From a virus (taxonomy: Duplodnaviria > Heunggongvirae > Uroviricota > Caudoviricetes): a DNA stretch of 64,000 nt. Below, one piece after another: positions 2,152-20,192 of the stretch. A program made the translations under genes and the position numbers. The stretch spans positions 2,700 through 66,699 of IMG/VR virus record IMGVR_UViG_3300023202_000102. One strand, 5' to 3'. How positions within the stretch are numbered: position 1 is the first letter of the stretch; the number at the start of each line of letters is the position of its first letter. The notes beneath the pieces were generated by a model. That model made no database searches, was not told where the DNA came from, and saw only the letters and a list, made by a program, of their open reading frames with translations.

Positions 2152-5100
2152 TCAGATGGTTACTACTCCGTATTGTTGCTTCAAATACTCTACGTTTTTA
2201 GCTATTGCTTCGTTAGAATGAGCGCCTTGGCAGGCAATAAATCTAGTTGAGGTTGATTCATATTTAGAAGTTAAAAACTGGTTAGTAAGGATTCTCATAC
2301 CATTAGCTGGTGTAAATGAATTAAGAGTTCCATCAACAAGATCGGCGGACTGACCGTCAGGGTGAAGTTCGAACCTAGAATTAGAGCCGTCTATCCTAGC
2401 AACCCATACACAAACGGGAGTTCCAGATGGCTCAGCTGCCTTAATAGCAGATGGCGGAATAGATACTCCCGGAGCGCCACCAGATGTAAACCTAGCCATT
2501 ATCCACGTAGAGTTAGTGGAAGAGAAGATACCACCAGATGATGCTATGTATTTAGCTACAATGTAGAGTGTCATCTGGTTGTAATTTGGAACAGAGTTGT
2601 TCTGAAACCCATCGTTGTTAGATGGTGGAGATGCCCATGATGCATTGCCTCTGAAATCAGAATCGGATTGGTTCAGACCGACAGGTCCGTTCAAATCTTC
2701 AAACAAATATGCATTGGTAGAGGCGTCTGTTACTTCGTCGGTTGTTGTGGTTCCAACAGCGTTGTTAGCGTCAAGATCGATAATTATTCCAGAGAACAAA
2801 TCGCTTACACTTACACGCCCTAGAGCCTTGTCAGTTTCTTTGTTGATATCATAATCTGAAAGTGCTCTGTCAATAATTTTGACGTTTGATATTATCCCTT
2901 CAGATGTGGCCGTGTTGTATCCAATGGTAAGCAACCCAGAAGAACCACCAGTAGGGTCTGTAAGAGTTCCAGATTCTCCCACCAAAACCCCATTAAGATA
3001 GAAAGAAACAACAGAGCTTTCTCTCTTCATTGTACAATGGTATAGCTTGCCCTCTTCTATTACACCGGCTGATGTGGTGTATGAAATATTTGTTCCACCC
3101 GAATGTTCTGCAAAGTATTGAAGAGCACCGGTTGAAAGAACTGATGATTGGTACAAAACATTATCAGCACTTGAGTCCGATGGACCACCCATTCTAACAA
3201 ACTGATCCTCGCCAGAAGATGGTAGCTGCCTACAATAGTATGTCCATTCAACAGTGATGTCTCCTGTAATTTGAAGGTCTGAATCTGTTGATGATTGTCC
3301 AAACTCATTAGTGCCATCCATGTACGCACCATGAGCGCCAGACTCATAGCGAACATAGCTTTCAGAACCAGCTTCAACAGATAAGGTTTCTCTTCCATTA
3401 CTAGATTCATCTATAAGGTTTGTGTCTAGTGGAAATAAAGCTAGCGGATCATAATCTGTACCAAGCTTGCCTGCAGAGATTGGTAGTGTGTATCTTTGAA
3501 TGTTATATTTTGGACTGTTCTCTAAACGAACAGCTGACGGGTATGATGGAACTATTAAGGTTTTAGGAGCGTCCTCAATAATATCTCCGGAATCCATATC
3601 GGTCATAATTGCTGGGTTTGAATTACCAGAATAATCTAACAATGTTGGGAAGGTATCATCATCACCCATGTACCAATACCCTATTAGGTTTGAGAAAGCT
3701 GTAGTGTCTGTTACATTTTTTGTTGTTCCTCCATTGTAAATGGAGGTTATTTCTGTACCTGACAGTGGTCTGTCAAACATGGCAACATCATCCATTTGCC
3801 CTGTAAGCGTTGATTCTCCATCTGATCTAGAGCCCAGGTTATGTACAGCAGATGCATCTATACATGTTGAAGTAATTGAATCAGTGTCATCATTATCCAG
3901 GCTCTCACTGCGACCATCAACCCATATCTCAAAATCTGAAGCAACAACTGGTGACGAGTTTGAAACCTTGTTAAATACAACATGGTGCCACTCTCCATCA
4001 TTCCATCCTCCAGAGGATGTTGTGACAGTGAAATCATTGCCATCTGATACTTGTTCTAAGTAAGTTCTAAATTTTCCAGAATCTCTCATCTGAACACCAC
4101 ACTGACCTTCTGATGAAACGGCATCTGGATGATTATAAGCCCATAAATAATTGATCCCAGAGTCTGTAGATTTTACCCACAATGATATTGCCCATGTTGT
4201 ATCATAATCAAAAACATCAAGCTCGGCTGGAGCATTCAAATCAACCCATCCAGTGTTATCAAAATTAATTGAATAATTTGAGTGCGGAATAATAAGAGGG
4301 TTGTTGCACCATGATGTTAGTAATCTATTTTCTTTTGGTGGTGGAGCGAGGGGGCCAGCAAGATACATAGCCTCTCTGTCTTCAAGAGAGATGGTTCCGT
4401 TATAAACGGCTACCCAATAAATATTTCCCTCAAAAGTAACAAGGCCAGTATCTCTTGCGCCAATGCTAATATCCGTTGTTCCTCCATATGAAGTAGGTGA
4501 GTCGTTGCTTACATTTACAGATCCAATATCTATATTGTCTGCAGAAAAACTCATTCCAGAAGAGTCAGAAGATCCATCGTATTCACATGTAATAAAATGA
4601 GGAAGGTTATCATCTGGAAAAGCATCCGCATCTGAATCTCTTCCTCTGAAGGAACCTCCATCTTCTTGAGAGTGACGTATCTCCCCATTAGGATAAATGT
4701 AAATGCCCCAACCATCTAGTGATGTATTTCTTTTAGCTATTATGTGACCATCAGCTCCGCTTGGTCTAGATGCCCAGAACACTATTGTATACGGATCTGC
4801 TGTATCAAATGTTAATGATGGATCATGTGGTATCTCCCCATACTGATTAGTCCCATTAAGAACTAGAGAGTATGGATTAGCTCTAGAATCTCCTCCAGAT
4901 CTCAGTCCGTTTTCAACTAAAGAGTTATTGTAGTTTACTGTAGCGCCATCAAGTTCATAACCATCTAGGTCATAACCATCAGCTAGATGAGTGTGAAGTG
5001 GTCCGTCTTTAAGAGGCCAGTATCCTACCGGCATGTTACCAGATAGCTCCAACCCTTTTACATCAATCATACGTCCGCCATTATAAATGACGTTTACATC

Positions 5101-5634
5101 TGATTGTACTAGTTCATAATCATAGTACTGACCATGCTTAAGGTAACCAGTAAAAAACCTATCAGAGTTTCTTGCACCAATGTTAAGTGGCTCTGTATTG
5201 AGTGTGCTTCCTGTTAGGTTATTAGTATCAGTTGATGTTGGTTGAGCTGTTCCGTCAACGTAAATTGTAAGACCTGACACGTCAGAGTTTCCAGAGTATG
5301 TGACTATACAACAATGCCATTGTCCATTATTAAACCCGGACGTAGTGGTTCTAATCTGAAGACGAGCCGCTCCACCACCTACTCCCTCAAATCTAAACCA
5401 AATGTTTCCAGGCGTTGTATCCCCAACACCCCAGTAATACCCTCTAAAATCTCCGGTATTTTCTGCCTTAGATATCAATGATCCAAAGTCTGGATTGGAT
5501 GTTCTAAACCAGCACACCAGTGAGAACGGATCTAATCTATCTGGAGTTAAAAGATCGTTGTGCGGCACCTCGATGTGCTGATTGCCATTAAAAGACATGG
5601 CATTAGATGGTCTGTGTTTGAAAGTTAAGCTCAT
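2152..5634 (-). CDS. Large structural protein (1160 aa) with repeated concanavalin-A/LamG-like jelly-roll domains (tail fiber/baseplate-like)
   Basis: Repeated blocks such as 'LVCWFRTSNPDFGSLISKAEN...WHCCIVTYSGNSDVSGLTIYVDG' and 'WAISLWVKSTDSGINYLWAYN...EWHHVVFNKVSNSS...EIWVDG' are typical of LamG/ConA-like lectin folds. Confidence 0.5.
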   Translation of the reverse strand: MSLTFKHRPSNAMSFNGNQHIEVPHNDLLTPDRLDPFSLVCWFRTSNPDFGSLISKAENTGDFRGYYWGVGDTTPGNIWFRFEGVGGGAARLQIRTTTSGFNNGQWHCCIVTYSGNSDVSGLTIYVDGTAQPTSTDTNNLTGSTLNTEPLNIGARNSDRFFTGYLKHGQYYDYELVQSDVNVIYNGGRMIDVKGLELSGNMPVGYWPLKDGPLHTHLADGYDLDGYELDGATVNYNNSLVENGLRSGGDSRANPYSLVLNGTNQYGEIPHDPSLTFDTADPYTIVFWASRPSGADGHIIAKRNTSLDGWGIYIYPNGEIRHSQEDGGSFRGRDSDADAFPDDNLPHFITCEYDGSSDSSGMSFSADNIDIGSVNVSNDSPTSYGGTTDISIGARDTGLVTFEGNIYWVAVYNGTISLEDREAMYLAGPLAPPPKENRLLTSWCNNPLIIPHSNYSINFDNTGWVDLNAPAELDVFDYDTTWAISLWVKSTDSGINYLWAYNHPDAVSSEGQCGVQMRDSGKFRTYLEQVSDGNDFTVTTSSGGWNDGEWHHVVFNKVSNSSPVVASDFEIWVDGRSESLDNDDTDSITSTCIDASAVHNLGSRSDGESTLTGQMDDVAMFDRPLSGTEITSIYNGGTTKNVTDTTAFSNLIGYWYMGDDDTFPTLLDYSGNSNPAIMTDMDSGDIIEDAPKTLIVPSYPSAVRLENSPKYNIQRYTLPISAGKLGTDYDPLALFPLDTNLIDESSNGRETLSVEAGSESYVRYESGAHGAYMDGTNEFGQSSTDSDLQITGDITVEWTYYCRQLPSSGEDQFVRMGGPSDSSADNVLYQSSVLSTGALQYFAEHSGGTNISYTTSAGVIEEGKLYHCTMKRESSVVSFYLNGVLVGESGTLTDPTGGSSGLLTIGYNTATSEGIISNVKIIDRALSDYDINKETDKALGRVSVSDLFSGIIIDLDANNAVGTTTTDEVTDASTNAYLFEDLNGPVGLNQSDSDFRGNASWASPPSNNDGFQNNSVPNYNQMTLYIVAKYIASSGGIFSSTNSTWIMARFTSGGAPGVSIPPSAIKAAEPSGTPVCVWVARIDGSNSRFELHPDGQSADLVDGTLNSFTPANGMRILTNQFLTSKYESTSTRFIACQGAHSNEAIAKNVEYLKQQYGVVTI

Positions 5635-5643
5635 TACAACCTC

Positions 5644-6414
5644 TTAGATATGTTTTATTATGTGGTTACCACTAGACATAGCTATGTTATTTATAGCTTT
5701 GATGCCCTCAAAAGCCGCCTTAGCATCTAGCTTAATGGGATTTGATTTGTCTGGAATTAATGTTAGTTTATCTTCTGACCACTCTCCCTGGTGATATCCG
5801 CTACAGTTCCATACATGAGGTAAAGCATCGCCTGGAACTGGATAGGTGTGCTGGTGCCCTGACCATCTTACAAACGCATAGTCCTTTGATGAGCGTGGTA
5901 GGATTTTATATCCCTCATCAATCATCTCAGATACCCATACAGAATCTTCACCCCATGGCTGTTCTGTTTCTTTGAAATAGATAGATTTATCTATTCTCCC
6001 AGCCAAAGTGCCACCACAAGCACCTCGGAAAACCCTCTTTGACTCACAGTAATATAGGCTTCCACTCTCAGCTCTCACATACACACTAGGAATGCCCGTC
6101 CCATCAGCGCCCATTTTTCTAACACTATCAATCTCTGGTAAGTACTCTGGCCCGTAGTAATCATCAACATCGATTCGTACAAACCAATCACCAGGAGCGG
6201 ACTCTTTTTTCAGATGGTCGAAAGCACTCTGTAAAAATGGAACAACACCAACCTTATCCTGAGTAATGGCGTCGTCAAACAACCCCATAGCTTCGCCTGT
6301 TTCAACCACAAGAACCTGAACATTTAGATTACTTTTGTTAAGTCTATCCAGGTTCTTGTGAAGTTGTTTTTCAAATACTTTATCTTTGATTCCGATAACT
6401 AACCAATACTTCAT
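5644..6414 (-). CDS. Hypothetical protein, possible GT-A fold glycosyltransferase (DxD-like 'RIDVDDY')
   Basis: 256 aa ORF between structural genes; N-terminal 'YWLVIGIKDK...NVQVLVVETGE' followed by 'IDVDDYYG' resembles a nucleotide-sugar transferase Rossmann-like N-half; weak. Confidence 0.35.
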   Translation of the reverse strand: MKYWLVIGIKDKVFEKQLHKNLDRLNKSNLNVQVLVVETGEAMGLFDDAITQDKVGVVPFLQSAFDHLKKESAPGDWFVRIDVDDYYGPEYLPEIDSVRKMGADGTGIPSVYVRAESGSLYYCESKRVFRGACGGTLAGRIDKSIYFKETEQPWGEDSVWVSEMIDEGYKILPRSSKDYAFVRWSGHQHTYPVPGDALPHVWNCSGYHQGEWSEDKLTLIPDKSNPIKLDAKAAFEGIKAINNIAMSSGNHIIKHI

Positions 6415-6428
6415 GTCTTTCCATTGCC

Positions 6429-9110
6429 TTAGTCATCAACCATAGTGATAAGGGTTAGCTCTATTTGTACAAAGTATCTTGGCTGATCTGCTGTTCCAGC
6501 AGATCCGATTTGAACCCTTGGAGCAGCAGGAGAGTCGCCATCATTTGTTGCAACAAAGGTTAATGATCCGGCTGATGCTGCAAGAAGTTCGTCATCAATC
6601 CTATCAGAGGTGCTAGAATATCCATTAGAATCTCCTCCCCATGTCCAGGAGGCAACCCATTTAGATACATCGTATGACGATCCGTCAGCTCTTTGAACAG
6701 ATACAGTTACTGCTGCCATGAGCTTGGCATCATCGCTTCCAATTGGGGTTACACCACCAATTACAAAAGGAAGATCATAGTTAACTGCATCTTCATTATT
6801 GTTTTCCAAAACCACAAACAATGTCTCAGTGCCAACCTGGGCCGTTGTGGATGGAACATAATTATCAACATAACCATCAGACTCAAATGCAACTACATTG
6901 TCATTACCAGACTGATCTGTGAAAACCATCTTCTCATCATCACGGACCCAGAGTGTTCCCTCGTCTCCAGCTCCAGATGATGGATCGTATGGTGTTGTTG
7001 ATTGTTCAGAGAAAACCATTCCGGTTGGGTCTATTAGACCACCAACCGTAAGTTTGTTTGTTATCTCAAGGCTACCATTTACAAGAACAATACCATCTGT
7101 TCCTGATGTTGACGCTCCTGGATTAAGTTCAATATTACCAGAGTCACCACCATTTGTATCACCTGTTGATAATACAATAGATCCAGAGTTGGAGCTTGCT
7201 GCAGCTCTTGAGTTATCTCCGGTTGTAACAGAGAAACCTCCGGTTACAGTTGCGTCTGTGTCATCCGAGTCTCCAGATGTAAAGGTAAACCCTCCAGAAT
7301 CTCCTCCCTGTGCATCTCCAGTTGTTACATCAAAACCACCAGAGCCGCCTGTGTTTCCCGCTCCGGAAGTAAAAGAGAAACCACCAGACGTACCGCTACC
7401 ACCGGCACCAGTTACAACATCAAAAGAACCAGATCCTACGCTGTCACCAGACCCTGTTGTAAGAGTAATAGAACCAGAACCTCCAGAGTTTCCTGCTCCG
7501 GTAGTGACCGATACAGATCCTGAAGCTCCGCTTTGACCTGCGCCAGTAAGAATATCAACATCGCCCGAGCCGTTGGCTGGAGAACCTCCCGTTAAAGTAA
7601 TTGTTGTTGGATTGCCACCGCCGCCGGTATTGTTTGTTCTAAGAACAACACTTCCAGAATCAGAGCCTCCGTCTATCTGAAGGGCTTCAAGCAATACCTG
7701 CCCACCAGTTCCGGAAACTCCATTGGCTGATGTTCTAAGTATGATATCACCACCTTCATTACCAGAAGCATCTGTTTGAATTCTAATATTACCGCCAGCG
7801 GCTGAGCCAACACTAGGCGTTGCTGTTCCCGTTGTATAGTTACGAATTAGAATTTCATCACCAGGGCCGCCCTGTGATTGAGCTTGAATGGAAATTGGTC
7901 CGGAACCGCCACCATCTCCTGTGCTTTCAATAGTAATCGGAGCGCCGGGGCCGCCGCCGCCAGCATCAGTTCTAATAGTAATCTCACCTGAGATGCCCGA
8001 ACCAGTTGTGATTAGATCAATGGTACCAGAAGTTCCTCCGGTTGATGTTGTGGTTAATGAAATGTCTCCAGAGTTACCACCGGTTGTGGTACTAAAGTTA
8101 AAGTTACCACCATTACCACCTGGATTTGTGTTGATAAAGGATACATCGCCACCTCCAGTACCAGAACCATCTAGAGTTACTGTGAAGTTTCCAGGAGATC
8201 CAGAGCCGTTGTTTGAATCAAATACAAAATCACCACCTGTGGTGCCAGATCCGGTGAGCGTAACGTTAAGGTTTCCAGATGGCCCACCACCATTTGTGGA
8301 CTTTAAGTTTAAGTTACCACCAGCTGGCGCTCCTCCAGAGTAAGAGAAGATATCAATATCTCCCGATGGACCACCATTTGCACTAGAGAATAGGCTTACA
8401 TTACCAGCGGTTGAAGAGCTGATAGATGCGACAACTACATCACCAGATGGTGCAGCCGTACACTCGGAGGAAAGCTTTACCTGTCCAGAGGTGTTAGATG
8501 TTGAGAACGATCCGTAATAACCATCTCCAGATCTACCATTAGTAGACTCTGCTCTAACGGTTAGGGTTCCACCAAATCCAGAGTTTCCACTACCTGTTGT
8601 GATAGAGACATCACCAGAGTCTCCTGTTCCAACACTGGACCCTGTGCTAACAATAAAATCTCCACCATTATTGGTTCCAGTACCTGTTGTAAGAAATAAA
8701 TTACCAGAACTTCCCGCTCCATTATCTTTGGTTCTAATGGTTACCGCATCTGTTGCAAGTTCGCCAGTAATAGTATCGCCCGTTGACAGTTCTATACTTG
8801 TTCCTCCGGTAACATTTCCAAGACTTAAGGTCTCTGCCAGGTCTTCGTTGCCACCTGTACCTCCAACACCCGGTCCACCGATTACAAAATCAGTAGCAGT
8901 ACGGTCAGTATAAACTAAGTAACCATCATCTCTGGTCCATACCAACCCTTCTGTTCCTGAGGCTGATGGATCGTAAGGCGCAGAACCTTGCTCATTCATT
9001 GCGTTACCCGCAACGTTAGTCATGTTTGCACCAGAGGCATTTACACTGCCACCGTTGTCCTTATCGAGGATTGTAATTGGACCTAGTTGTTCTTCAATAG
9101 GGCGTACCAT
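6429..9110 (-). CDS. Glycine-rich repeat fiber protein (paralog), start placed at internal ATG 9110
   Basis: ORF 6429..9143. The ATG at 9110 (GGAGA Shine-Dalgarno) gives MVRPIEEQLGPITILDKDNGG, matching the conserved N-terminus of paralogs and avoiding overlap with the gene ending at 9121. Contains two copies of the 'PYDPS..G.EG.LWVRDD' module. Confidence 0.6.
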   Translation of the reverse strand: MVRPIEEQLGPITILDKDNGGSVNASGANMTNVAGNAMNEQGSAPYDPSASGTEGLVWTRDDGYLVYTDRTATDFVIGGPGVGGTGGNEDLAETLSLGNVTGGTSIELSTGDTITGELATDAVTIRTKDNGAGSSGNLFLTTGTGTNNGGDFIVSTGSSVGTGDSGDVSITTGSGNSGFGGTLTVRAESTNGRSGDGYYGSFSTSNTSGQVKLSSECTAAPSGDVVVASISSSTAGNVSLFSSANGGPSGDIDIFSYSGGAPAGGNLNLKSTNGGGPSGNLNVTLTGSGTTGGDFVFDSNNGSGSPGNFTVTLDGSGTGGGDVSFINTNPGGNGGNFNFSTTTGGNSGDISLTTTSTGGTSGTIDLITTGSGISGEITIRTDAGGGGPGAPITIESTGDGGGSGPISIQAQSQGGPGDEILIRNYTTGTATPSVGSAAGGNIRIQTDASGNEGGDIILRTSANGVSGTGGQVLLEALQIDGGSDSGSVVLRTNNTGGGGNPTTITLTGGSPANGSGDVDILTGAGQSGASGSVSVTTGAGNSGGSGSITLTTGSGDSVGSGSFDVVTGAGGSGTSGGFSFTSGAGNTGGSGGFDVTTGDAQGGDSGGFTFTSGDSDDTDATVTGGFSVTTGDNSRAAASSNSGSIVLSTGDTNGGDSGNIELNPGASTSGTDGIVLVNGSLEITNKLTVGGLIDPTGMVFSEQSTTPYDPSSGAGDEGTLWVRDDEKMVFTDQSGNDNVVAFESDGYVDNYVPSTTAQVGTETLFVVLENNNEDAVNYDLPFVIGGVTPIGSDDAKLMAAVTVSVQRADGSSYDVSKWVASWTWGGDSNGYSSTSDRIDDELLAASAGSLTFVATNDGDSPAAPRVQIGSAGTADQPRYFVQIELTLITMVDD

Positions 9111-12998: not shown

Positions 12999-13071
12999 GG
13001 GCCGATAGCACAACGGTCAGTGCGCCGGTCTCATAAACCGGTGGTTCTCAGTTCAAATCTGAGTCGGCCCA
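12999..13071 (+). tRNA. tRNA with anticodon CAT, elongator type, probably tRNA-Ile2 (lysidine substrate) rather than tRNA-Met; no encoded CCA
   Basis: Canonical cloverleaf: acceptor GGGCCGA/TCGGCCC, D-stem GCAC/GTGC, anticodon stem CCGGT/ACCGG with loop CTCATAA, T-arm CTCAG-TTCAAAT-CTGAG, discriminator A. G1-C72 is paired, so not an initiator. C4-G69 and C5-G68 match the TilS identity elements. Confidence 0.9.
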
Positions 13072-13084
13072 CTTGGAGGAAAAG

Positions 13085-13476: not shown

Positions 13477-13857
13477 ATGAGCGAAGTTACCAAAGAACAG
13501 GTTGTTGATTATCTTTCCAACCTTCCAGTCATTCAGATTTCAGAGCTTGTCAAAGAGCTTGAAGAGAAGTGGGGAGTGTCTGCCGCTCCTGTGATTCAGG
13601 GTGGTGTTGGGCCCGGACCTACTGATGAAGGTCCATCTGATGAAAAGACTGAGTTCGATGTTGTTCTGACTTCGTTTGGTTCTTCTAAGATGCCTATCAT
13701 TAAAGAGGTTCGTGCTCTCACTGGTCTTGGTTTGAAAGAAGCCAAGGAAAAGGTTGAGAGTGTTCCTTCAGTTCTCAAGGAAGGTATCTCCAAAGAGGAA
13801 GCCGAAGAGATCAAGGGCAAGATTGTCACAGCCGGTGGAGAGGTAGAGATCAAGTGA
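13477..13857 (+). CDS. rplL: Ribosomal protein bL12 (L7/L12)
   Basis: Near-collinear with bacterial L7/L12: N-terminal dimerisation helix, hinge '[18 protein letters not shown]', C-terminal domain '[40 protein letters not shown]...LKEG(I)[17 protein letters not shown]'. Confidence 0.88.
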
Positions 13858-14186
13858 ACCCCTCTCGTCGTGCATTGATTTCTATTCTTCATTCGAGAAA
13901 AACATCTCAGGTCATTCACGGCGAGAACCTTCTCACAACAGAGAAGGCTATAGAAGATGCTGCGCGGGATGCTCTTGATGAGTTTTCAGATCAGATAGAA
14001 GACGTTAGTCATGAGCAGTTAATTTCAATTTGCCAAGGGCTGTTTGTTCGAAGCATTGCAATGCTAGCTGTAACTTCTGAAGAAGACCCAGAACGTGGTG
14101 AGATCATTAATGAACTCACCAAAGATATCTGTTCAAAAGTTCTTGATGAAGAAGAGAGTGTTCCGCACCTACGTTTGGTAAGGTAG
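13854..14186 (+). CDS. Hypothetical protein (acidic; possibly a sigma-associated N-terminal region)
   Basis: GTG start overlapping the rplL stop; 110 aa ORF ending immediately at the sigma-factor start. Confidence 0.35.
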
Positions 14187-14810
14187 ATGGAATCACAGAT
14201 AGAAATATTCAATAAATACAAGAGGCTAGCATACAAGATAGCAAATCAGTTCTCTTATATTTGGCCTCATTACAAAGACGAAATAGAATCCGCTGCGATG
14301 TTTGGTCTTTGGGAGGCCGCTAAGAAAACAGAGTGTGATAATCCAATCAGCCTTTACTCTGCGATTATCAAAAATCATATCTTATATGTCTCAACTAAGT
14401 TTGATCCTATTTCAAAATGGTATAAAAGGAAAATCGCAGATGGAGAGATGGACGAGATAAGTTTTGTTTCTACAGACTCTCATTCTCAGTCAGATGATAG
14501 CTCTGGTTTTGAAAGTAAACTTTTTACAGAGATTGACTCAGCAATTGGACACTCCGAGACCATAGAAGATCAGCTCATTCAAAAAGAAATTGAACTAGAG
14601 CGTAGTAAGATTGTTCGCAGTGCAATCAAACAGCTCCCTCAAAAACAAAGGTTCATTGTTAGGTCTATCTTTTTTAAAGGCAAGAGTGGTAATGAGCTTG
14701 CCAAAGAATGGAACTGCTCTGGTGAAAATGTTCTAAGGCAAAAAAGAAACGCATTAAAAACAATGAGCCAATCAAACTCACTAAAGAAACTAAATACCAA
14801 ACTCAACTAG
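14187..14810 (+). CDS. Sigma-70 family RNA polymerase sigma factor (small, regions 2 and 4)
   Basis: Region 2 'IESAAMFGLWEAAKKTECDNPISLYSAIIKNHI' (compare DLIQEGNIGLMKAVEKFDP..FSTYA.WWI) and region 4 HTH 'LPQKQRFIVRSIFFKGKSGNELAKEWNCSGENVLRQKRNALKTM'. Confidence 0.7.
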   Translation: MESQIEIFNKYKRLAYKIANQFSYIWPHYKDEIESAAMFGLWEAAKKTECDNPISLYSAIIKNHILYVSTKFDPISKWYKRKIADGEMDEISFVSTDSHSQSDDSSGFESKLFTEIDSAIGHSETIEDQLIQKEIELERSKIVRSAIKQLPQKQRFIVRSIFFKGKSGNELAKEWNCSGENVLRQKRNALKTMSQSNSLKKLNTKLN

Positions 14811-14817
14811 AGGTAAG

Positions 14818-15552
14818 ATGCCCAAGCTAAATCAAATTGTAGCCATCGAAGATGGTACCAAAAAGCGTGACCATAAAGAGATCTCTGCCATCTACAAGTC
14901 ACTTCAGAAGCCTGACTTGTTTAATGGGTTCTTCAGAACCTATACCCCCATCAATGATGAGGATATTGTTTATCCGGCCGAGCAAAAGAATGTTCAGCAA
15001 AAATGCCATGAGCTTCTTGAGCTTGTCAAGTCTAACAAAATTGAGCTTTGGAATGTCATTGCCACTAAGGATTACGCCAACTGTCAGGCTAAGGCTGATA
15101 TTGTTGTAGATGGTGTCGCTCTTGCGAGCGACGTTCCTGTAACTCATCTTCTCTTCTTAGAGAAGCAGTTGAATGATCTGAAAGATTTTATACTAAAGCT
15201 TCCGGTCTTGGACCCTACAAAGACATGGGGCTTTGATTCAAACAAAGACCTCTACGTCTCACAGTTTGTAGAGGAAAGACTCAAGACTAAGAAGATTCAC
15301 AAATCTGTAATCAAGTTCGAGCCTTCTGAGCATACTCCTGGCGATGCGGATGTTGTTACAGTAGATGAGCCAGAAGGTCGTTGGAAACAGGAAGATGTAT
15401 CAGCAGCCTTCCCTGCTAACAAGATTCGTGAGGTAATGACACGAGTCACTAAGCTTCAAGAGGCAGTAAAGTTTGCTCGTGAAGAGGCGAACTCTCTTGA
15501 AGTAGAGAAGCAAAAGATTGCCGAAGGAATGCTTGAATACATCTTTGGATAA
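14818..15552 (+). CDS. Hypothetical protein (244 aa)
   Basis: Good ORF with AGAGG Shine-Dalgarno; follows the sigma gene; no recognisable motif. Confidence 0.5.
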   Translation: MPKLNQIVAIEDGTKKRDHKEISAIYKSLQKPDLFNGFFRTYTPINDEDIVYPAEQKNVQQKCHELLELVKSNKIELWNVIATKDYANCQAKADIVVDGVALASDVPVTHLLFLEKQLNDLKDFILKLPVLDPTKTWGFDSNKDLYVSQFVEERLKTKKIHKSVIKFEPSEHTPGDADVVTVDEPEGRWKQEDVSAAFPANKIREVMTRVTKLQEAVKFAREEANSLEVEKQKIAEGMLEYIFG

Positions 15553-15558
15553 GATTTT

Positions 15559-15606
15559 CATCGGAGAGTAATCTCCGGTGAGGAACCGGCCCCCGATGTC
15601 TGGGGG
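15559..15606 (+). other. Cluster of nested hairpins directly after a stop codon (terminator-like or small RNA 5' element)
   Basis: CATCGG[GGAGA-GTAA-TCTCC][CCGG-TGAGGAA-CCGG]CCGATG, then CCCCC-GATGTCT-GGGGG; no clear U-tract. Confidence 0.3.
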
Positions 15607-15677
15607 TCTTAGCAGACAAACTAAACCTCAAACTAAAACTGAGACTAACAAGACGCCACTACTGGGGCTTTGCCCTT

Positions 15678-15728
15678 GCAGGTTCGAGTCCTGCCCCTAT
15701 CACCACCGAAAGGTTATCTATGATAGGG
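15678..15728 (+). ncRNA. tRNA-like element: T-arm + acceptor 3' strand + CCA, then an 18-nt loop and the complementary 5' strand (permuted/tRNA-like arrangement)
   Basis: GCAGG-TTCGAGT-CCTGC (G53, TTCGA, C61 consensus), then CCCTATC-A-CCA, loop, GATAGGG. No canonical 5' half upstream. Lies in a 445-bp ORF-free region. Confidence 0.3.
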
Positions 15729-15836
15729 TACCCAAACAGGCACAGGGAGTTGTGGTACTCAATCAAGTTATTCTGCTAATCTCGTAAGGACACCGTATGT
15801 AAACTAATCAAGCTGTGTGTACAATTTTGAGAGGAT

Positions 15837-15928
15837 GTCCGTTCGATTCGGATCCTGTGGGCAAGGGACATGAGCAAGTTGCTCTCTCCGAGAGGTCAAC
15901 TAAACCACTGTTGATGTCTCTTGCCCAC
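15837..15928 (+). ncRNA. Second T-arm-like hairpin plus a 15-bp long-range helix (structured RNA candidate)
   Basis: GTCCG-TTCGATT-CGGAT at 15837-53; GTGGGCAAGGGACAT (15857-71) pairs with ATGTCTCTTGCCCAC (15914-28) with one G.U. Confidence 0.3.
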
Positions 15929-15998
15929 GGGTAGCTTAAGGGAAAAGCGTCTCATTTAAAAATGATGCATACATTAAACGTCGTAGTTTATATTACGG

Positions 15999-16652
15999 AT
16001 GGGCAGTGGAGTAGATAGGCTATCAACATCTCCGCTGCCCTTTCTATATTTGGAGCAAATACGACCAATGAAAGAATTCATAGAGCTTGTTCTCATATCT
16101 CTAGAGCGTGATAACCTCATCAAATTAGGTAGCATTCTCTTCCTTCTCAGTTTCTGTCACTTTGTTGTTGACTGGGGTTTTCAGAGCCATAAGGAAGCAA
16201 TGAACAAAGCCACGAATCATAACATAAGGTTCGTGCATTGTTGCGTGTACACCATTGGAATGCTACCGTTGGTAGCTCTTCTTATTGGAGATCACACAAG
16301 GATAGGGCAGGCTGTCCTTACATGCGCAAGCGTCATGTGGATTAGCCACTTTCTCATTGATACATATATCCCAGTGTATCTGTGGGTCAAGTACATTAGA
16401 AGACCACCAAGCAAAGATGTAACAGAACTTGAGTACTTCAAAGATTTCGCATCAACTCCAATAGGCCTCTTCCTGGTAATAGCAATGGACCAGGTGTTTC
16501 ATTTACTATTTCTAATCCCAGTTGCGCTAACAATTATGTGGCCAACCTTTTATTATTATTGGGGATTGGTCTCTGGTTTCTTTGTTTTATTACTGTGTTG
16601 GTCGGTAGTGTTTGGAGTGAAAAAACTATATGCCATTCAAGAGAACAGATAA
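15999..16652 (+). CDS. Integral membrane protein (multi-pass), hypothetical
   Basis: 217 aa with about 5 hydrophobic helices (e.g. ILFLLSFCHFVV, LPLVALLIGD, IGLFLVIAMDQVFHLLFLIPVALTIMW, GLVSGFFVLLLCWSVVF). Confidence 0.5.
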   Translation: MGSGVDRLSTSPLPFLYLEQIRPMKEFIELVLISLERDNLIKLGSILFLLSFCHFVVDWGFQSHKEAMNKATNHNIRFVHCCVYTIGMLPLVALLIGDHTRIGQAVLTCASVMWISHFLIDTYIPVYLWVKYIRRPPSKDVTELEYFKDFASTPIGLFLVIAMDQVFHLLFLIPVALTIMWPTFYYYWGLVSGFFVLLLCWSVVFGVKKLYAIQENR

Positions 16653-17466
16653 AGGAAAAGTTCAATACCCAAATGGAATTTCCTCAGAAGATAGAAGGTT
16701 CTGTAGAAAAGTGTTCAACGAAATGGGTGAATACATCGATGTAGACGGCGATCCTAATGCACAAAAAGAACTTATCATTGCATGCTCTGGTGGTTTGGAC
16801 AGCACTGTGCTTGCGCATGTGTTTGCGCAAATGTGTATTATCTCTGGTCTAAAAAAGAATCGTGTTAAACTTGTGTATGTTGACCATGGGCTCCGAAATT
16901 TGGTTGAGTTACACCGGGATGCAACACACGTTATCAACCTTGCCGAAATGCTTGGATTCAATGGAGAGGTAATTAAGGTCACCCTTAATGAGGGTAATGT
17001 TCAAGAACAAGCTCGCATTGCTAGGTATGATGCCCTGGCAGCAATGGCTGTCCAAACAAGTTCGGGAGATTATGCCGATGTTTTACTGGCTCACCATGCC
17101 AATGACGTTGCAGAAACAAAGCTGTTTCAATTCCTTACAGGTCGAAAGGTTACCGGGATTGAATCAAATCTTTCTTGGTATATCAAATCTGAGCACGAAA
17201 AAGATCCCAACCCATTGGTGCCAAAGTGTGAATACACCATTGATTTTTTCAGACCCTTTCTAAATCTTACACGTTCTGATTTAGAAAGATACGCTAGGAT
17301 TTGGAACCTACAATGGGTGGAAGATTCTACCAATGGTACTAACAAGTACACACGAAACCGTATCCGTCATGAACTAATTCCATGGATTGAAAAAAATGTA
17401 AACCCAGGTGTTATCAACACACTAGTGGGGCTTCATGAAAAAGAAAGAGAAGCTGACGATACCTGA
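16630..17466 (+). CDS. tilS: tRNA(Ile)-lysidine synthetase TilS (PP-loop ATPase), short form
   Basis: PP-loop 'ACSGGLDSTVLAHVF'; TilS-specific 'AHHANDVAETKLFQFLTGRKVTGIE' (compare aHHxDDQaET..lRl.RG). Confidence 0.78.
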   Translation: MPFKRTDKGKVQYPNGISSEDRRFCRKVFNEMGEYIDVDGDPNAQKELIIACSGGLDSTVLAHVFAQMCIISGLKKNRVKLVYVDHGLRNLVELHRDATHVINLAEMLGFNGEVIKVTLNEGNVQEQARIARYDALAAMAVQTSSGDYADVLLAHHANDVAETKLFQFLTGRKVTGIESNLSWYIKSEHEKDPNPLVPKCEYTIDFFRPFLNLTRSDLERYARIWNLQWVEDSTNGTNKYTRNRIRHELIPWIEKNVNPGVINTLVGLHEKEREADDT

Positions 17467-17576
17467 GCTAACCCAAAAAATGCTATCTCTTCCGGTAAAA
17501 GAGAGGGGCTGGTATGCTCATCAAATTCGCATCTTACAATCTAAACAGATAAAAGATAGTAAGAAAAAGGCATAGT

Positions 17577-17984
17577 TTGGTATCATGTCGTGGAGGAACC
17601 GACATGCTCAATGTACTAGTAGCCGCACTCATGGAAGTTGTTGACACCAGCAACGATCTAAAAACAGGTAACGTCGAAGCTGGAGAACTTACAGCTGCGA
17701 AGAAGCGTTTCTTTTCTGCGCTTAACGAGTTTGTTGATTACCGAGTTAAAGTTGCCATGGACCAACGCAGAAGGAACATCAGCCAGGAAAGAATAGCTGT
17801 TGCTGACTCTATCAATGCTGCTGTAAAGTCCACTGCGAGTACAATCAAAAGTATCTCTGCTCTTAACTCGGCTCCCGCTCCGTTTCCACCAGCAGACGCC
17901 ACTAAAGAAGAGATTGAAATTTGGTTTGCGGCTTATAAAGATTGGTATGAAAACAAGAGAAGGGAAGGCATTACAATAGAATAA
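17577..17984 (+). CDS. Hypothetical protein
   Basis: 135 aa ORF; the true start may be the ATG at about 17604 (MLNVLVAAL). Confidence 0.4.
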   Translation: MVSCRGGTDMLNVLVAALMEVVDTSNDLKTGNVEAGELTAAKKRFFSALNEFVDYRVKVAMDQRRRNISQERIAVADSINAAVKSTASTIKSISALNSAPAPFPPADATKEEIEIWFAAYKDWYENKRREGITIE

Positions 17985-18013
17985 TGCATATAGCAAAGTT
18001 CTAGCATATCAAT

Positions 18014-18859
18014 ATGACTGATTGGTATGCACATGAACAGTTCCTCATTGATGAGGTTAAGAAGCTTGAAGAGGCCGAAGCGGCTTACGCTTTGCGCGAG
18101 GCCTGGAAGAAAATTTATGGACAGTATCCAAGTGATAAATCACTGGCGGTTCTTTGGGCAAAGTCTGCCCTTGAAACTGGTCGTTGGAAGATTATTCATT
18201 GTTACAACTTTGGTAACATTAAAAAGCTAGGAACTCATCGCGGTAATGATGACGGACATTACTTTACAATGTACAGGTGCTCTGAGATTCTAAATGGTAA
18301 AGAGGTTTGGTTTGATCCTCCGCATTACCAAACACATTTCAGAGCCTACAAGACAGTTGAAGCTGGTGCTGAAGATTACATTAGGTTTGTATCTCAAAAG
18401 AAAAGATACCTCAAGGCATGGCAAGAAGTCATTAACGGTGACCCACGGGCATACTCTCATGAGTTGAAAAAGGCGGGGTATTATACTGCGTCTGAGTCAT
18501 TGTATACCGCTGGTGTTGTTAGATTGTTTGATTCATTTATGAAAAGAAAGGATGAGCTTTTGTCTTGGGAACCAGAAGATAAAATTGATACCATTCCATC
18601 TCCGGCCCCTGAACCAGCCAATCCTATTGAAGAGGAACCTGTCAAAGAAGATCCAGAGGAAAAGATTGATACCAACATTGACAATGGGCCTCCACCATCA
18701 AAAGACTTTGATAATGACAATGAGATCACTGATGTTGATGCCGGGGTCGAGACGAGTGCTTCTAAAGAAATTGGCAAAAGTGCTAAGCCTATGTTCCTGA
18801 TGGCTGTGATTGTTGCTGCCATTGCTTGGGTTTCGCAATTCTTTCAAAGCTGCCAATAA
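18014..18859 (+). CDS. GH73-family N-acetylglucosaminidase (peptidoglycan hydrolase / endolysin-like) with C-terminal TM anchor
   Basis: 'LAVLWAKSALETGRW...NFGNIK' and 'LKKAGYYTASESLYTAGVVRLFD' resemble FlgJ/GH73 motifs (AQAALESGWG..N.FGIK; AGYATDP.Y); C-terminal 'MFLMAVIVAAIAWVSQFF'. Confidence 0.6.
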   Translation: MTDWYAHEQFLIDEVKKLEEAEAAYALREAWKKIYGQYPSDKSLAVLWAKSALETGRWKIIHCYNFGNIKKLGTHRGNDDGHYFTMYRCSEILNGKEVWFDPPHYQTHFRAYKTVEAGAEDYIRFVSQKKRYLKAWQEVINGDPRAYSHELKKAGYYTASESLYTAGVVRLFDSFMKRKDELLSWEPEDKIDTIPSPAPEPANPIEEEPVKEDPEEKIDTNIDNGPPPSKDFDNDNEITDVDAGVETSASKEIGKSAKPMFLMAVIVAAIAWVSQFFQSCQ

Positions 18860-18923
18860 ACCTTTACAGCTGCACCAATACGGGGTAGGCTGATGAGGCT
18901 CTGGCATAACCGGAGAAGATCGA

Positions 18924-19517
18924 ATGAAGTCAGCCACCTACGGCAAAAATAAGCAGGAAGGAAAACCCCCTGCGGTGATCCTTACGAACCCCAAGTACTC
19001 GTACAATGTGGGTGGCGCACAGCGTGCGTGCTCTTGTTGGGGTGTTTCTCAGCTGTGGTGGACGGGCAATCGTGTACGTTTTGAAGCAACTGAATCTGGA
19101 AAAGGCAACAAGAAAAGACTTCCAAGAGAAGAGCGAATGAAAGGATACATGGATGTTGAACTGCGACAGTTCGATTATCCATTTGATCAGTTCGACAAAA
19201 GCGTAACAACTGTTGCTATTGAACTGATACCTGGAGCCGAACCTCTACCAACATTCGAACACCCCGAAAACGCCGTGTATGTTTTCGGGCCAGAAGATGG
19301 TTCAATTGATTCTGTTACCAGAAAGCATTGCCATCGTTTTGTTTCCATTCCTGCTCATCACTGTATGAATCTTTCTATGGCTGTTGGGCTTGTTCTGTAT
19401 GATAGGTTCATTAAGATGAACCAAGATGTTAGACTTGAGGATATCCTCAAGGAGAATCGATATGATTTCACTGACCATAGGTTGGCAGCGAAAGAAATGG
19501 GATTAGTTTCAAGATGA
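18924..19517 (+). CDS. SpoU/TrmH-family RNA 2'-O-ribose methyltransferase
   Basis: SpoU motifs 'ILTNPKYSYNVGGAQRA', 'VYVFGPEDGSIDSV', 'VSIPAHHCMNLSMAVGLVLYD'. Confidence 0.6.
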   Translation: MKSATYGKNKQEGKPPAVILTNPKYSYNVGGAQRACSCWGVSQLWWTGNRVRFEATESGKGNKKRLPREERMKGYMDVELRQFDYPFDQFDKSVTTVAIELIPGAEPLPTFEHPENAVYVFGPEDGSIDSVTRKHCHRFVSIPAHHCMNLSMAVGLVLYDRFIKMNQDVRLEDILKENRYDFTDHRLAAKEMGLVSR

Positions 19518-19705
19518 AGATTACTAGTATTAAGATTGACAAGACCAAGCTGGTTAACTCTGCTAAGTCCGTTGGCAATGCAGCTTGGAAAGTTGCCAAG
19601 TCTGAAGAGGCTCTTGGTGCTTTGAAAATCATTGCAGCCACAGTTGCTTTGATTCATGCCGTTGAAGAGCTTAGGCAAACAAGAAATAAAATTGGCTTCA
19701 AGTAA
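19514..19705 (+). CDS. Small hypothetical protein (63 aa)
   Basis: Overlaps the neighbouring start and stop (ATGA); helical. Confidence 0.35.
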   Translation: MKITSIKIDKTKLVNSAKSVGNAAWKVAKSEEALGALKIIAATVALIHAVEELRQTRNKIGFK

Positions 19706-20192
19706 TGAAGAAGATTTATCTTGCTGGTCCTACGTATTCAGGTCAGACTCAAAAGAGATAGGTAAGTTTCTCAAAGGGCTTTGTGAGGCTTTTGGTTTTG
19801 AAGGTGTGTATCCATTAGACAACGAGATATCAAACATCGAATCGAAACCAAGGCAAGCTCTTGGTAAAGAGATTGCTGAAGCAAATGTCGAACTCATTCA
19901 TGGGTGTGATTATGTTTTAGCAAACCTTGAACCTTTTCGAGGGCCAAGCGCAGACTGTGGAACAGTCTGGGAGTGTGCCTATGCTAAAGGTTTGGGAAAG
20001 ATGGTTGCTGGATACTCAAAGACAAAATCATTACCATACAAAGACAAAGTCCTCAACGTACTTCCTCATGATGGAATGATGGTAGAAGACTTTCACGCTT
20101 GGGATAACATCATGTTAGTGCATGGTATTGATTTTATGTGTAGTGACCCTCGTGTTGGTTTACAATGGCTTAGAGAACAGGACAAGAAATGA
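19705..20192 (+). pseudogene. Nucleoside 2-deoxyribosyltransferase-like (PF05014) gene with an apparent -1 frameshift after codon about 17
   Basis: ATG at 19705 gives the family N-terminus MKKIYLAGPTYSGQTQKR then TAG. The remainder (…EIGKFLKGLCEAFGFEGVYPLDNE…DCGTVWECAYAKGLGKMVAGY) is in the -1 frame (track ORF 19656..20192). The junction is in an A-run 'ACTCAAAAGAGATAG'. Confidence 0.55.

Follow-up and report, generated by a model that had tools for sequence, protein, structure and literature searches.

The DNA analyzed here, a stretch of 64,000 nucleotides (nt) from a large phage (IMG/VR record IMGVR_UViG_3300023202_000102, positions 2,700 to 66,699; hereafter the window, in whose numbering positions are given), contains a gap 3' of a DUF7873 gene that appears to encode a structured non-coding RNA with two permuted transfer RNA (tRNA)-like cores. 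The DUF7873 gene (14818-15552, plus strand, as are the RNA and all of its parts) specifies 244 amino acids (aa) and is matched by Pfam PF25283 over residues 1-243 of 244 (E=3.5e-84; 282.8 bits against a cut-off of 27). The next gene, for a DUF3307 membrane protein (Pfam PF11750; 16068-16652, plus strand), lies outside the element and sets its downstream limit. A mechanical open reading frame (ORF) spans 15999-16652, but the PF11750 match starts at its residue 46 and the gene is called at 194 aa in the source contig; the true start is therefore the ATG at 16068 and not that at 15999, which falls within the RNA, in the region of its terminal hairpin, and the non-coding stretch consequently runs from 15553 to 16067. 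Within it, positions 15609-16051, or possibly 15559-16051 if two 5' hairpins are included, probably encode a stable non-coding RNA of two domains, present in one copy in the window. The original prediction of an ORF-free structured RNA at this locus stands as to its nature, although not as to its extent, since the element continues past 15998 to about 16051. The ORF listed at 15578-15787, which had been called implausible, is not conserved in homologs and is disrupted by indels that are not multiples of three, and a protein-coding reading was rejected.

The two 5' hairpins (15559-67/15572-80 and the GC-rich 15588-95/15601-08), which had been noticed after the stop codon at 15552 and are evident from the sequence and from its minimum free energy (MFE) fold, occupy 15559-15608 between that codon and the RNA core; they may be the terminator of the DUF7873 gene or the 5' part of the RNA, and a GC-rich hairpin directly 5' of the RNA core is also found in close homologs (loci L002, L005, L006 and L080 of the collection described below). 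Domain 1 (15609-15779) is closed by the helices P-outer (15609-16/15772-79) and P-hex (15619-22/15766-69), and an internal loop of its arm carries five hexamer repeats at 15618-15647 (AAACTA, AACCTC, AAACTA, AAACTG and AGACTA), the first of which is base-paired in P-hex; hexamers of the consensus A-R-N-Y-U-N occur in all family members examined, without a conserved start or stop. Module 1 (15655-15756), delimited by a structural module finder and by covariation, comprises AC1 (15655-63/15748-56), which is the analog of an anticodon stem, a variable arm (15664-76) that is class-II-like in this clade, a T arm (GCAGG-TTCGAGT-CCTGC, 15678-94) and a 7-bp acceptor hairpin formed by the exactly complementary strands CCCTATC (15695-701) and GATAGGG (15722-28). 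The loop of this hairpin consists of the discriminator A73 (15702), CCA (15703-05) and a 16-nt linker (15706-21), and beyond the hairpin follow U8 and A9 (15729-30) and the D arm (CCC-AAACAGGCACA-GGG, 15731-47).

The two domains are joined by a conserved, unpaired linker, CUCAGCAU. The arm of domain 2 (15793-15998) is made up of P-base (15793-97/15994-98), Px (15800-06/15984-90), P-mid (15814-21/15966-73) and AC2 (15828-32/15950-54), with the internal-loop boxes AUCAA (15807-11) and UUAAACG (15974-80) at the places where the family at large has AUCGA facing CUUAAACG. Module 2 (15837-15948), likewise delimited by the module finder and by covariation, contains a T arm (GTCCG-TTCGATT-CGGAT, 15837-53), a closed acceptor-like hairpin of 18 bp without CCA (15854-71/15914-31), U8 and A9 (15932-33) and a D arm (GCUU-AAGGGAA-AAGC, 15934-48). 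A terminal hairpin (16001-11/16030-40) with an apical GGCUA (16018-22), whose loop motif RGGCUAY recurs throughout the family, and a U-rich run (16041-51) form the probable 3' end. The T arm of module 1 with its acceptor strand, A, CCA and downstream complement, as well as the T-arm hairpin of module 2, had all been recognized correctly in the original prediction, which also saw the long helix of module 2, albeit as 15 bp at 15857-71/15914-28; the second D arm, the two-domain architecture and the likeness to the YrlA RNAs taken up below had been overlooked. Since a closed acceptor hairpin, U8-A9 and a canonical D arm come in succession after each T arm, two complete permuted tRNA cores are present, each in the order of variable region, T arm, loop-closed acceptor stem, U8-R9 and D arm. 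In each domain, a long composite helix bearing conserved internal loops thus takes the place of the anticodon arm of the tRNA core.

Folding energies and compensatory changes support this architecture. The plus strand of 15553-16068 has an MFE of -194 kcal/mol, as compared with -146 +/- 6 for dinucleotide shuffles (z = -7.56), and the minus strand of the same stretch gives z = -3.6. In an alignment of 38 compact members (A3), RNAalifold returned 45 pairs, 40 of them with compensatory changes. The two domains were then aligned separately and pairs were counted on a specified structure; slid controls, in which partners were moved by 1-3 columns and which, unlike shuffles, correct for phylogeny, scored far lower than the real structure throughout. 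For domain 2 (A4, 30 sequences; P-base, Px, a 2-bp C-G/G-C mini-helix, P-mid, AC2, T2, Acc2 and D2), 91.2% of cells were paired (63.7% in shuffles), 40 of 43 pairs had changed on both sides, and the covariation score was 0.752 against 0.233 when shuffled (0/500 shuffles as good; slid controls <=0.16), with T2, Acc2 and D2 paired in 100%, 99% and 98.3% of cells, respectively, and each showing compensatory changes. For domain 1 (A5, 25 sequences; P-outer, P-hex, AC1, T1, Acc1 and D1), the corresponding values were 91.0% of cells paired (75.2% in shuffles), both-side changes at 24 of 32 pairs and a score of 0.445 against 0.170 (0/500 shuffles as good; slid controls <=0.13); Acc1 was compensatory in 7/7 pairs and 99.4% paired, T1 was 100% paired, AC1 was compensatory in 5/5 pairs, P-outer had changed on both sides in 5/6 pairs, and P-hex was 91% paired. 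G-U pairs are frequent (e.g., in 7-8 sequences at several Px positions), and as these would read A-C on the opposite strand, the RNA is assigned to the plus strand. Given that this strand folds far below its shuffles and that the elements recur with compensatory changes in dozens of homologs, the observation is more than chance. The covariation that had been proposed as a check across homologous phage loci is therefore strong in both domains, and the description of a structured, circularly permuted tRNA-like RNA is borne out in more than 80 non-redundant homologs.

These homologs could be reached only by protein-anchored retrieval via DUF7873. Searching 50,697 phage records with the region by blastn produced no match, a search of IMG/VR with a single-protein pattern was equally empty, and exact-pattern motif scans of IMG/VR and the JGI metagenomes yielded mostly chance matches along with three new members (L080, L133 and L143). 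Contigs encoding DUF7873 relatives (52-57% identity), on the other hand, have ORF-free gaps of 445-630 nt 3' of the gene that can be aligned with the window. An nhmmer profile built from six close members placed the RNA immediately 3' of DUF7873, and always on the strand of that gene, in about 55 of 80 IMG/VR loci; a broader, family-wide profile did so in 76 of 78 viral and 73 of 79 bacterial loci, the RNA starting 50-130 nt after the DUF7873 stop codon. A structural finder (T arm, 7-nt strand, loop, 7-nt complement, U) detected two tandem modules in nearly all of the approximately 55 viral loci. The chromosomes of at least 542 bacterial species carry DUF7873 (Streptomyces, Ktedonobacteria, Sorangium, Deinococcales, Herpetosiphon, cyanobacteria, Armatimonadota and Pirellulales are among its hosts), and the same RNA follows the gene there. 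All-versus-all clustering of ORFs from 166 loci revealed no conserved neighbor other than DUF7873, the other large clusters having been judged, with their coordinates unchecked, to be shadow ORFs or translated RNA; a nucleotidyltransferase upstream of the pair in one Streptomyces locus did not recur across these loci. In bacteria, a sigma70-like promoter lies just 5' of the RNA in L249 (10/12 match, extended TG) and the terminal hairpin is predicted to be an intrinsic terminator in L317 and L240, so that the RNA can be its own transcription unit. Taken together, these findings indicate very strongly that the structured RNA family and its link to DUF7873 are genuine.

The family is new, being absent from Rfam 15 and without known description. 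The 4227 models of that release gave only two chance-level matches to small nucleolar RNAs in 15300-16300 (E of 3.5 and 5.7, far below gathering), and the models suggested earlier for a scan (tmRNA, tRNA-like and group I intron) returned nothing meaningful there at E<=10. Seven further family loci had no Rfam match, and no published account of this RNA was found in the literature on DUF7873, on tandem or permuted tRNA-like RNAs, or in surveys of structured non-coding RNAs. As anticipated, no canonical tRNA is found at the locus by ARAGORN or by Rfam RF00005.

The tRNA likeness nevertheless extends to individual nucleotides (counts refer to 86 non-redundant members unless another sample is named). 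The acceptor stems are 7 bp long and nearly perfectly complementary despite comprising 50 and 44 distinct sequences among 56 viral members. The T loops read UUCRANY, U8 is conserved, the D arms have A14, G18 G19 and A21, and the base preceding the T stem (position 48) is U in 79/86 and 68/86, which matches A15 of the D loop. The discriminator is A in 72/86 for module 1 and U or G for module 2. The discriminator is directly followed by CCA in 30/86 for module 1 and in 25/86 for module 2, where chance would give about 1.6%, and U is enriched at the last base of the acceptor loop, position -1 (43-56%). When the strands were rejoined in normal order in silico and an artificial anticodon loop was inserted, all four modules so treated (both from the window and both from Streptomyces L244) were called tRNAs by ARAGORN, their "Leu" label stemming solely from the inserted loop. 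In Streptomyces loci L264-L289 (about 5757-5852), ARAGORN also makes "tRNA-Phe/Leu/Ala" calls overlapping the 5' part of the RNA, using T arm 1, an acceptor formed with the upstream hairpin, and the hexamers AAGCUG-AAACUG-AAGCUU as an anticodon-like stem-loop; this normal-order fold has only 5/7 acceptor pairs and was judged spurious, though an alternative fold is possible.

The acceptor loops span 6 to about 290 nt. The short ones of both modules have a common consensus, N-C-Y-N...C-R-U (A4 columns 79-93 and A5 columns 87-102; e.g., UCCACGU, ACCACGU and GCUCGA), and many contain a self-complementary ACGU or CACGUG, which could permit loop-loop kissing between modules or between molecules. At the other extreme, inserts of 105-290 nt occupy the module-1 loop in L158 (4137-4370), L185 and L187 (about 3995-4260) and L006 (4896-5000), the 230-nt insert of L158 holding a further T-arm-like hairpin (GATGG TTCAAGT CCATC).

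In phages, the pair is often embedded among tRNA genes. A tblastn search identified DUF7873 in 74 deposited phages of Gordonia, Rhodococcus, Arthrobacter, Pseudanabaena, Klebsiella/Serratia (jumbo phages), Vibrio and Rhizobium. The proteins gp119 of Rhodococcus phage NiceHouse and gp152 of Gordonia phage GodonK belong to DUF7873 and are encoded in the middle of tRNA arrays, and in both phages the unannotated gap of about 500 nt after the gene contains the RNA (E=1e-50 and 6e-52, respectively; L321 6860-7268 in NiceHouse). In GodonK, the annotated gene for the hypothetical 42-aa protein gp151 (L322 7003-7131; MK620899 81412-81540) lies antisense and wholly inside the RNA; it was probably called in error. 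Overall, ARAGORN predicts 197 tRNAs in 505 kb of viral loci, with at least one in 38 of 80 loci; the bacterial loci have only 17 calls, and those inspected overlap the RNA and look spurious. That the DUF7873-RNA pair travels with tRNA genes in phages would fit a role in tRNA biology or translation and co-processing with tRNAs. Two further neighbors were observed in phage loci: a 368-aa protein with a Major Vault Protein shoulder domain (PF11978) and a weak Vault_3 match, encoded 4 kb downstream of DUF7873 on a 114-kb phage contig (L318 12903-14009), and a band-7-like protein two genes downstream of DUF7873 in NiceHouse; both may merely be SPFH-type membrane proteins.

The window derives from a Logan/JGI metagenomic assembly whose contig measures up to 194 kb. 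The surroundings of the RNA in the window include genes for a tRNA-Met, ribosomal protein L7/L12, a sigma-like factor, DUF7873, the DUF3307 membrane protein, a PP-loop ATPase resembling the N domain of TilS and a SpoU methylase. The original prediction drew on such translation-related neighbors; among the homologous loci these are not conserved, DUF7873 alone being so, although phage loci are frequently situated in tRNA arrays. The tRNA-Met (12999-13072) is the only tRNA in the window (ARAGORN, and Rfam at the gathering threshold). L7/L12 (13477-13857) is full-length with both Pfam domains, the TilS-like protein is encoded at 16630-17466 (TIGR02432, E=3.6e-41) and the SpoU-type RNA methylase at 18924-19517; a cluster of translation and tRNA-modification genes within 6 kb is unusual in a phage. 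Farther away, a 1160-aa protein with four Laminin_G_3/concanavalin-like lectin domains (2152-5634, minus strand) and very large adjoining ORFs (904-1163 aa) without a Pfam match are probably tail-fiber or host-recognition proteins.

Several known RNAs resemble parts of this design. Two-piece permuted transfer-messenger RNAs (tmRNAs) occur in alpha-proteobacteria, cyanobacteria and some beta-proteobacteria, with SmpB as their dedicated small partner; they are likewise large structured RNAs in which T arm, acceptor 3' strand and CCA lie 5' of the acceptor 5' strand, with an intervening segment, whereas the DUF7873-linked RNA contains two tRNA-like parts, which have a full D arm and in some cases a variable arm. 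Circularly permuted tRNA genes of Cyanidioschyzon merolae, other algae and one archaeon, whose transcripts are circularized at a splicing motif and give rise to normal tRNAs, also have the 3' half before the 5' half and a closed acceptor loop, there opened by RNase P and RNase Z; the RNA described here differs from them in having neither an anticodon loop nor a splicing motif, and we know of no bacterial enzyme for the circularization step. Likewise, tRNA mimicry inside a larger transcript is seen in the 3' modules of long non-coding RNAs (MALAT1 mascRNA and NEAT1 menRNA) and in viral 3' tRNA-like structures such as that of turnip yellow mosaic virus (TYMV), which are recognized by RNase P or the CCA-adding enzyme, but these are in normal order, single, eukaryotic or RNA-viral, and without a dedicated adjoining protein gene.

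To our knowledge, the only described RNAs with the same permuted layout are the YrlA-type Y RNAs of bacteria and phages. In YrlA (Rfam RF02553; PDB 6CU1), which is encoded beside Ro60/Rsr, adopts a tRNA-like L shape and is modified by TruB and DusA, an anticodon-type stem formed by the distal strands encloses a variable region, T arm, closed acceptor stem and D arm (PMC4201824; bioRxiv 10.1101/312249). This module order is identical to that of both DUF7873-linked modules, in the window and in the 86 non-redundant homologs, and the nucleotides of the tertiary pairs are conserved in both RNAs. Both also occur in bacteria and phages, on the same strand as the adjoining gene of their (here presumed) protein partner. 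In M. smegmatis, RNase P cuts YrlA, whose acceptor stem there measures 7 bp, and CCA is added to it (PMC4201824; bioRxiv 10.1101/312249); module 1 of the window shares the 7-bp stem, and its CCA is already encoded. The differences are equally clear: two modules in about 350-450 nt as opposed to one in about 110 nt, the additional P-outer, P-hex, P-base, Px and P-mid helices, hexamer repeats and GGCUA hairpin, and an adjoining gene for DUF7873 (244 aa) instead of a TROVE/Ro60 protein. A further resemblance may lie in short motifs. The exact motif GNCGAAN0-1G, a proposed Rsr contact, does not occur in 15553-16068, but the family has a related invariant box of CGAA type, AUCGA(A/C)NG, on the 5' side of an internal loop, in which the first G is replaced by A in about 90% of members. 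Directly after its D arm, the YrlA of Mycobacterium phage ET08 (L320 28268-28280; GQ303260 about 128268) has the 11-mer CUUAAACGCCG, which is identical to the invariant box of DUF7873-linked RNAs such as those of L162 and L181. The shared 11-mer and box may hint at kinship with YrlA, whether through a common protein-binding motif, through common ancestry or by coincidence. In its design, the RNA doubles and elaborates the YrlA-type tRNA mimic, with a different protein coupled to it.

On this basis, a mechanism in which a tRNA-mimicking RNA works with DUF7873 is considered reasonably likely, its binding, processing and function being inferred. DUF7873 would be the protein partner, forming a ribonucleoprotein (RNP) with the RNA, and the AUCGA/CUUAAACG loop, the hexamer-repeat loop and the GGCUA hairpin would offer the likely protein-binding surface. 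By analogy with YrlA and Ro60, the two L-shaped heads would present tRNA elbows and acceptor arms to tRNA-recognizing machinery, for which RNase P, the CCA-adding enzyme, TruB/Dus-type modifiers and possibly the ribosome or other tRNA-binding proteins are candidates. With its 7-bp stem, A73, CCA, 16-nt linker and U at position -1, module 1 of this phage is, on paper, a good RNase P substrate; if opened by RNase P and trimmed to CCA, it would yield a nicked, two-piece RNA with one free tRNA-like 3' end. Module 2, with its 18-bp hairpin and no CCA, would not be a good substrate. Such RNase P and CCA processing in this phage, for which the M. smegmatis YrlA is the precedent, is conceivable but somewhat doubtful.

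A number of observations weigh against the proposed mechanism. The interaction between DUF7873 and the RNA is postulated from gene adjacency. The predicted structure of DUF7873 (predicted local distance difference test score of 81.5) has no informative structural or sequence relative that would point to RNA binding; the family itself comprises 2529 clusters at 50% identity, which are all about 243-266 aa long, and none of the top 150 is a fusion. The RNA is missing from its expected place in 6 of 79 bacterial and 2 of 78 viral loci, although two of the six bacterial exceptions carry it nearby: L242 (Ktedonobacterales) has two tandem copies (6109-6504 and 6775-7089) about 800 nt downstream of DUF7873, and L287 (Ktedonobacter) has it on the minus strand (5787-6149). 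Roughly two thirds of members are without CCA, and many acceptor loops are only 6-8 nt long with a consensus of their own, N-C-Y-N..C-R-U, so the loop may work closed and cleavage may not be general. Lastly, a promoter scan found no sigma70-type site 5' of the RNA in the phage window, and the RNA here may for that reason be merely the 3' part of the DUF7873 transcript.

The last point bears directly on the view that the element acts in cis within the 3' untranslated region (UTR) of the DUF7873 mRNA, as an RNase P/RNase Z processing or stabilizing signal or as an autoregulatory operator, and has no function in trans. Its position on the same strand, shortly after the stop codon, would suit such a role, as would the missing promoter and the precedents of tRNA punctuation and MALAT1-mascRNA, tRNA-like 3' end processing being an established mechanism (bioRxiv 10.1101/312249). 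About 350 nt with two tRNA cores, five further covarying helices and invariant loops exceed what a processing signal needs, however, and the promoter-like site between gene and RNA and the terminator after the RNA in some bacterial loci, the distant tandem copies of L242 and the opposite orientation in L287 all argue for independence from the mRNA, leaving a purely cis-acting element unlikely. Somewhat less likely still is a tRNA decoy or sponge directed against anticodon or acceptor-stem nucleases, tRNA-modifying toxins or tRNA-sensing defense, which would make the RNA a phage counter-defense device. Phages do carry tRNAs that replace cleaved host tRNAs, the tRNA cores are near-perfect and many large phages harbor the RNA inside tRNA arrays, but the anticodon loop, the target of most known tRNA nucleases, is absent, the pair occupies ordinary chromosomal contexts in more than 500 bacterial species, and DUF7873 has no match among the PADLOC defense models.

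The remaining explanations assign the RNA to a known class. That it is a divergent true Y RNA of the YrlA type, bound by the Ro60 ortholog Rsr and only secondarily adjacent to DUF7873, would account for the identical module order, the resemblance of AUCGA(A/C)NG to GNCGAAN0-1G and the CUUAAACGCCG shared with ET08, yet this is improbable. The Rfam YrlA model, which as a positive control finds the ET08 YrlA beside the Ro-like gp220 (E=7.3e-6, 37 bits), has no match in 15300-16300 at E<=10 or in seven family loci at the gathering threshold, while the family profile gives the ET08 YrlA only a weak score of the kind that tandem tRNAs also receive. YrlA has one module and not two. No TROVE domain was detected in the ten neighboring genes (13477-20192) or in the ten ORFs of at least 498 aa in the window (smaller distant ORFs were not all scanned), no second conserved gene emerged from the 166 loci, and mycobacteriophages, the phage group with documented Ro60/YrlA, are absent from the 74 DUF7873-positive phage records. 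A two-piece permuted tmRNA-like gene that tags stalled proteins, as the original prediction had considered, is largely refuted and very improbable. Its appeal lies in the T arm, acceptor 3' strand and ACCA that precede the 5' strand, as in permuted ssrA, in a GCU AAU...UAA frame that survives a 3-nt indel among the five closest relatives, and in hexamers that can be read as (K/N/R)(L/F) dipeptides. That frame (15775-15807) is confined to those five relatives, the stop UAA in CUAAUCAAG corresponding to CGGAUCGAC in the wider family, and the hexamer frame (GCA GAC AAA CUA..) lacks a start as well as a conserved stop, is in part base-paired and employs AGA in GC-rich genomes; both were rejected as tags. 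There is, moreover, no ARAGORN or Rfam tmRNA match at E<=10, a G-U at acceptor pair 3:70 (U3-A70 in the window) occurs in only 1/86 for module 1 and 5/86 for module 2, the full D arm and two tRNA-like domains are unlike tmRNA, and no SmpB-like partner was found. Finally, a precursor of genuine permuted tRNAs, or the decayed remains of three tRNA genes in tandem, would be in keeping with the order of algal and archaeal permuted tRNA genes, the ARAGORN calls on de-permuted cores, the phage tRNA-array context and the tandem-tRNA origin proposed for YrlA (bioRxiv 10.1101/312249). There is, however, no anticodon loop and no splicing (bulge-helix-bulge) motif, and AC1 and AC2 run on into family-specific covarying helices (P-hex/P-outer and P-mid/Px/P-base, respectively), on account of which the precursor was rejected; a pseudogene relic is excluded, since the element is under purifying selection across phyla and invariably linked to DUF7873, and this explanation as a whole is extremely improbable.

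Beyond the window, the mimicry of tRNA by an RNA that may work with DUF7873 lends itself to a broader reading, which is plausible though somewhat short of probable. DUF7873 and its RNA may constitute an unrecognized RNP that is widespread among bacteria and large phages and forms a counterpart of the Y RNA system independent of Ro60; its scaffold of 350-450 nt would expose two permuted tRNA mimics to the machinery of tRNA metabolism and translation. Cleavage by RNase P could, in many members, leave one or both mimics with a free CCA end, which might even be aminoacylatable, and phages could use the pair within their tRNA arrays to reprogram or protect tRNA metabolism during infection. The cellular purpose may be tRNA quality control or repair, translation control or a tRNA decoy.

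Large structured bacterial non-coding RNAs whose function is not known are rare, and OLE, GOLLD, ROOL and raiA have each become research fields. The RNA described here is widespread, its DUF7873 partner gene being present in many jumbo phages as well as in bacteria; its architecture, with a pair of permuted tRNA cores, is unusually clear, and a single obvious candidate for the protein partner exists. In GenBank records of cultured phages (GodonK, NiceHouse and others), an RNA gene of about 400 nt is left unannotated within tRNA arrays, in one case beneath a spurious coding sequence. As tractable hosts and phages carry the pair, its function is directly testable. YrlA-type tRNA mimicry would be extended beyond the Ro60 system, and DUF7873 would gain its first functional lead.

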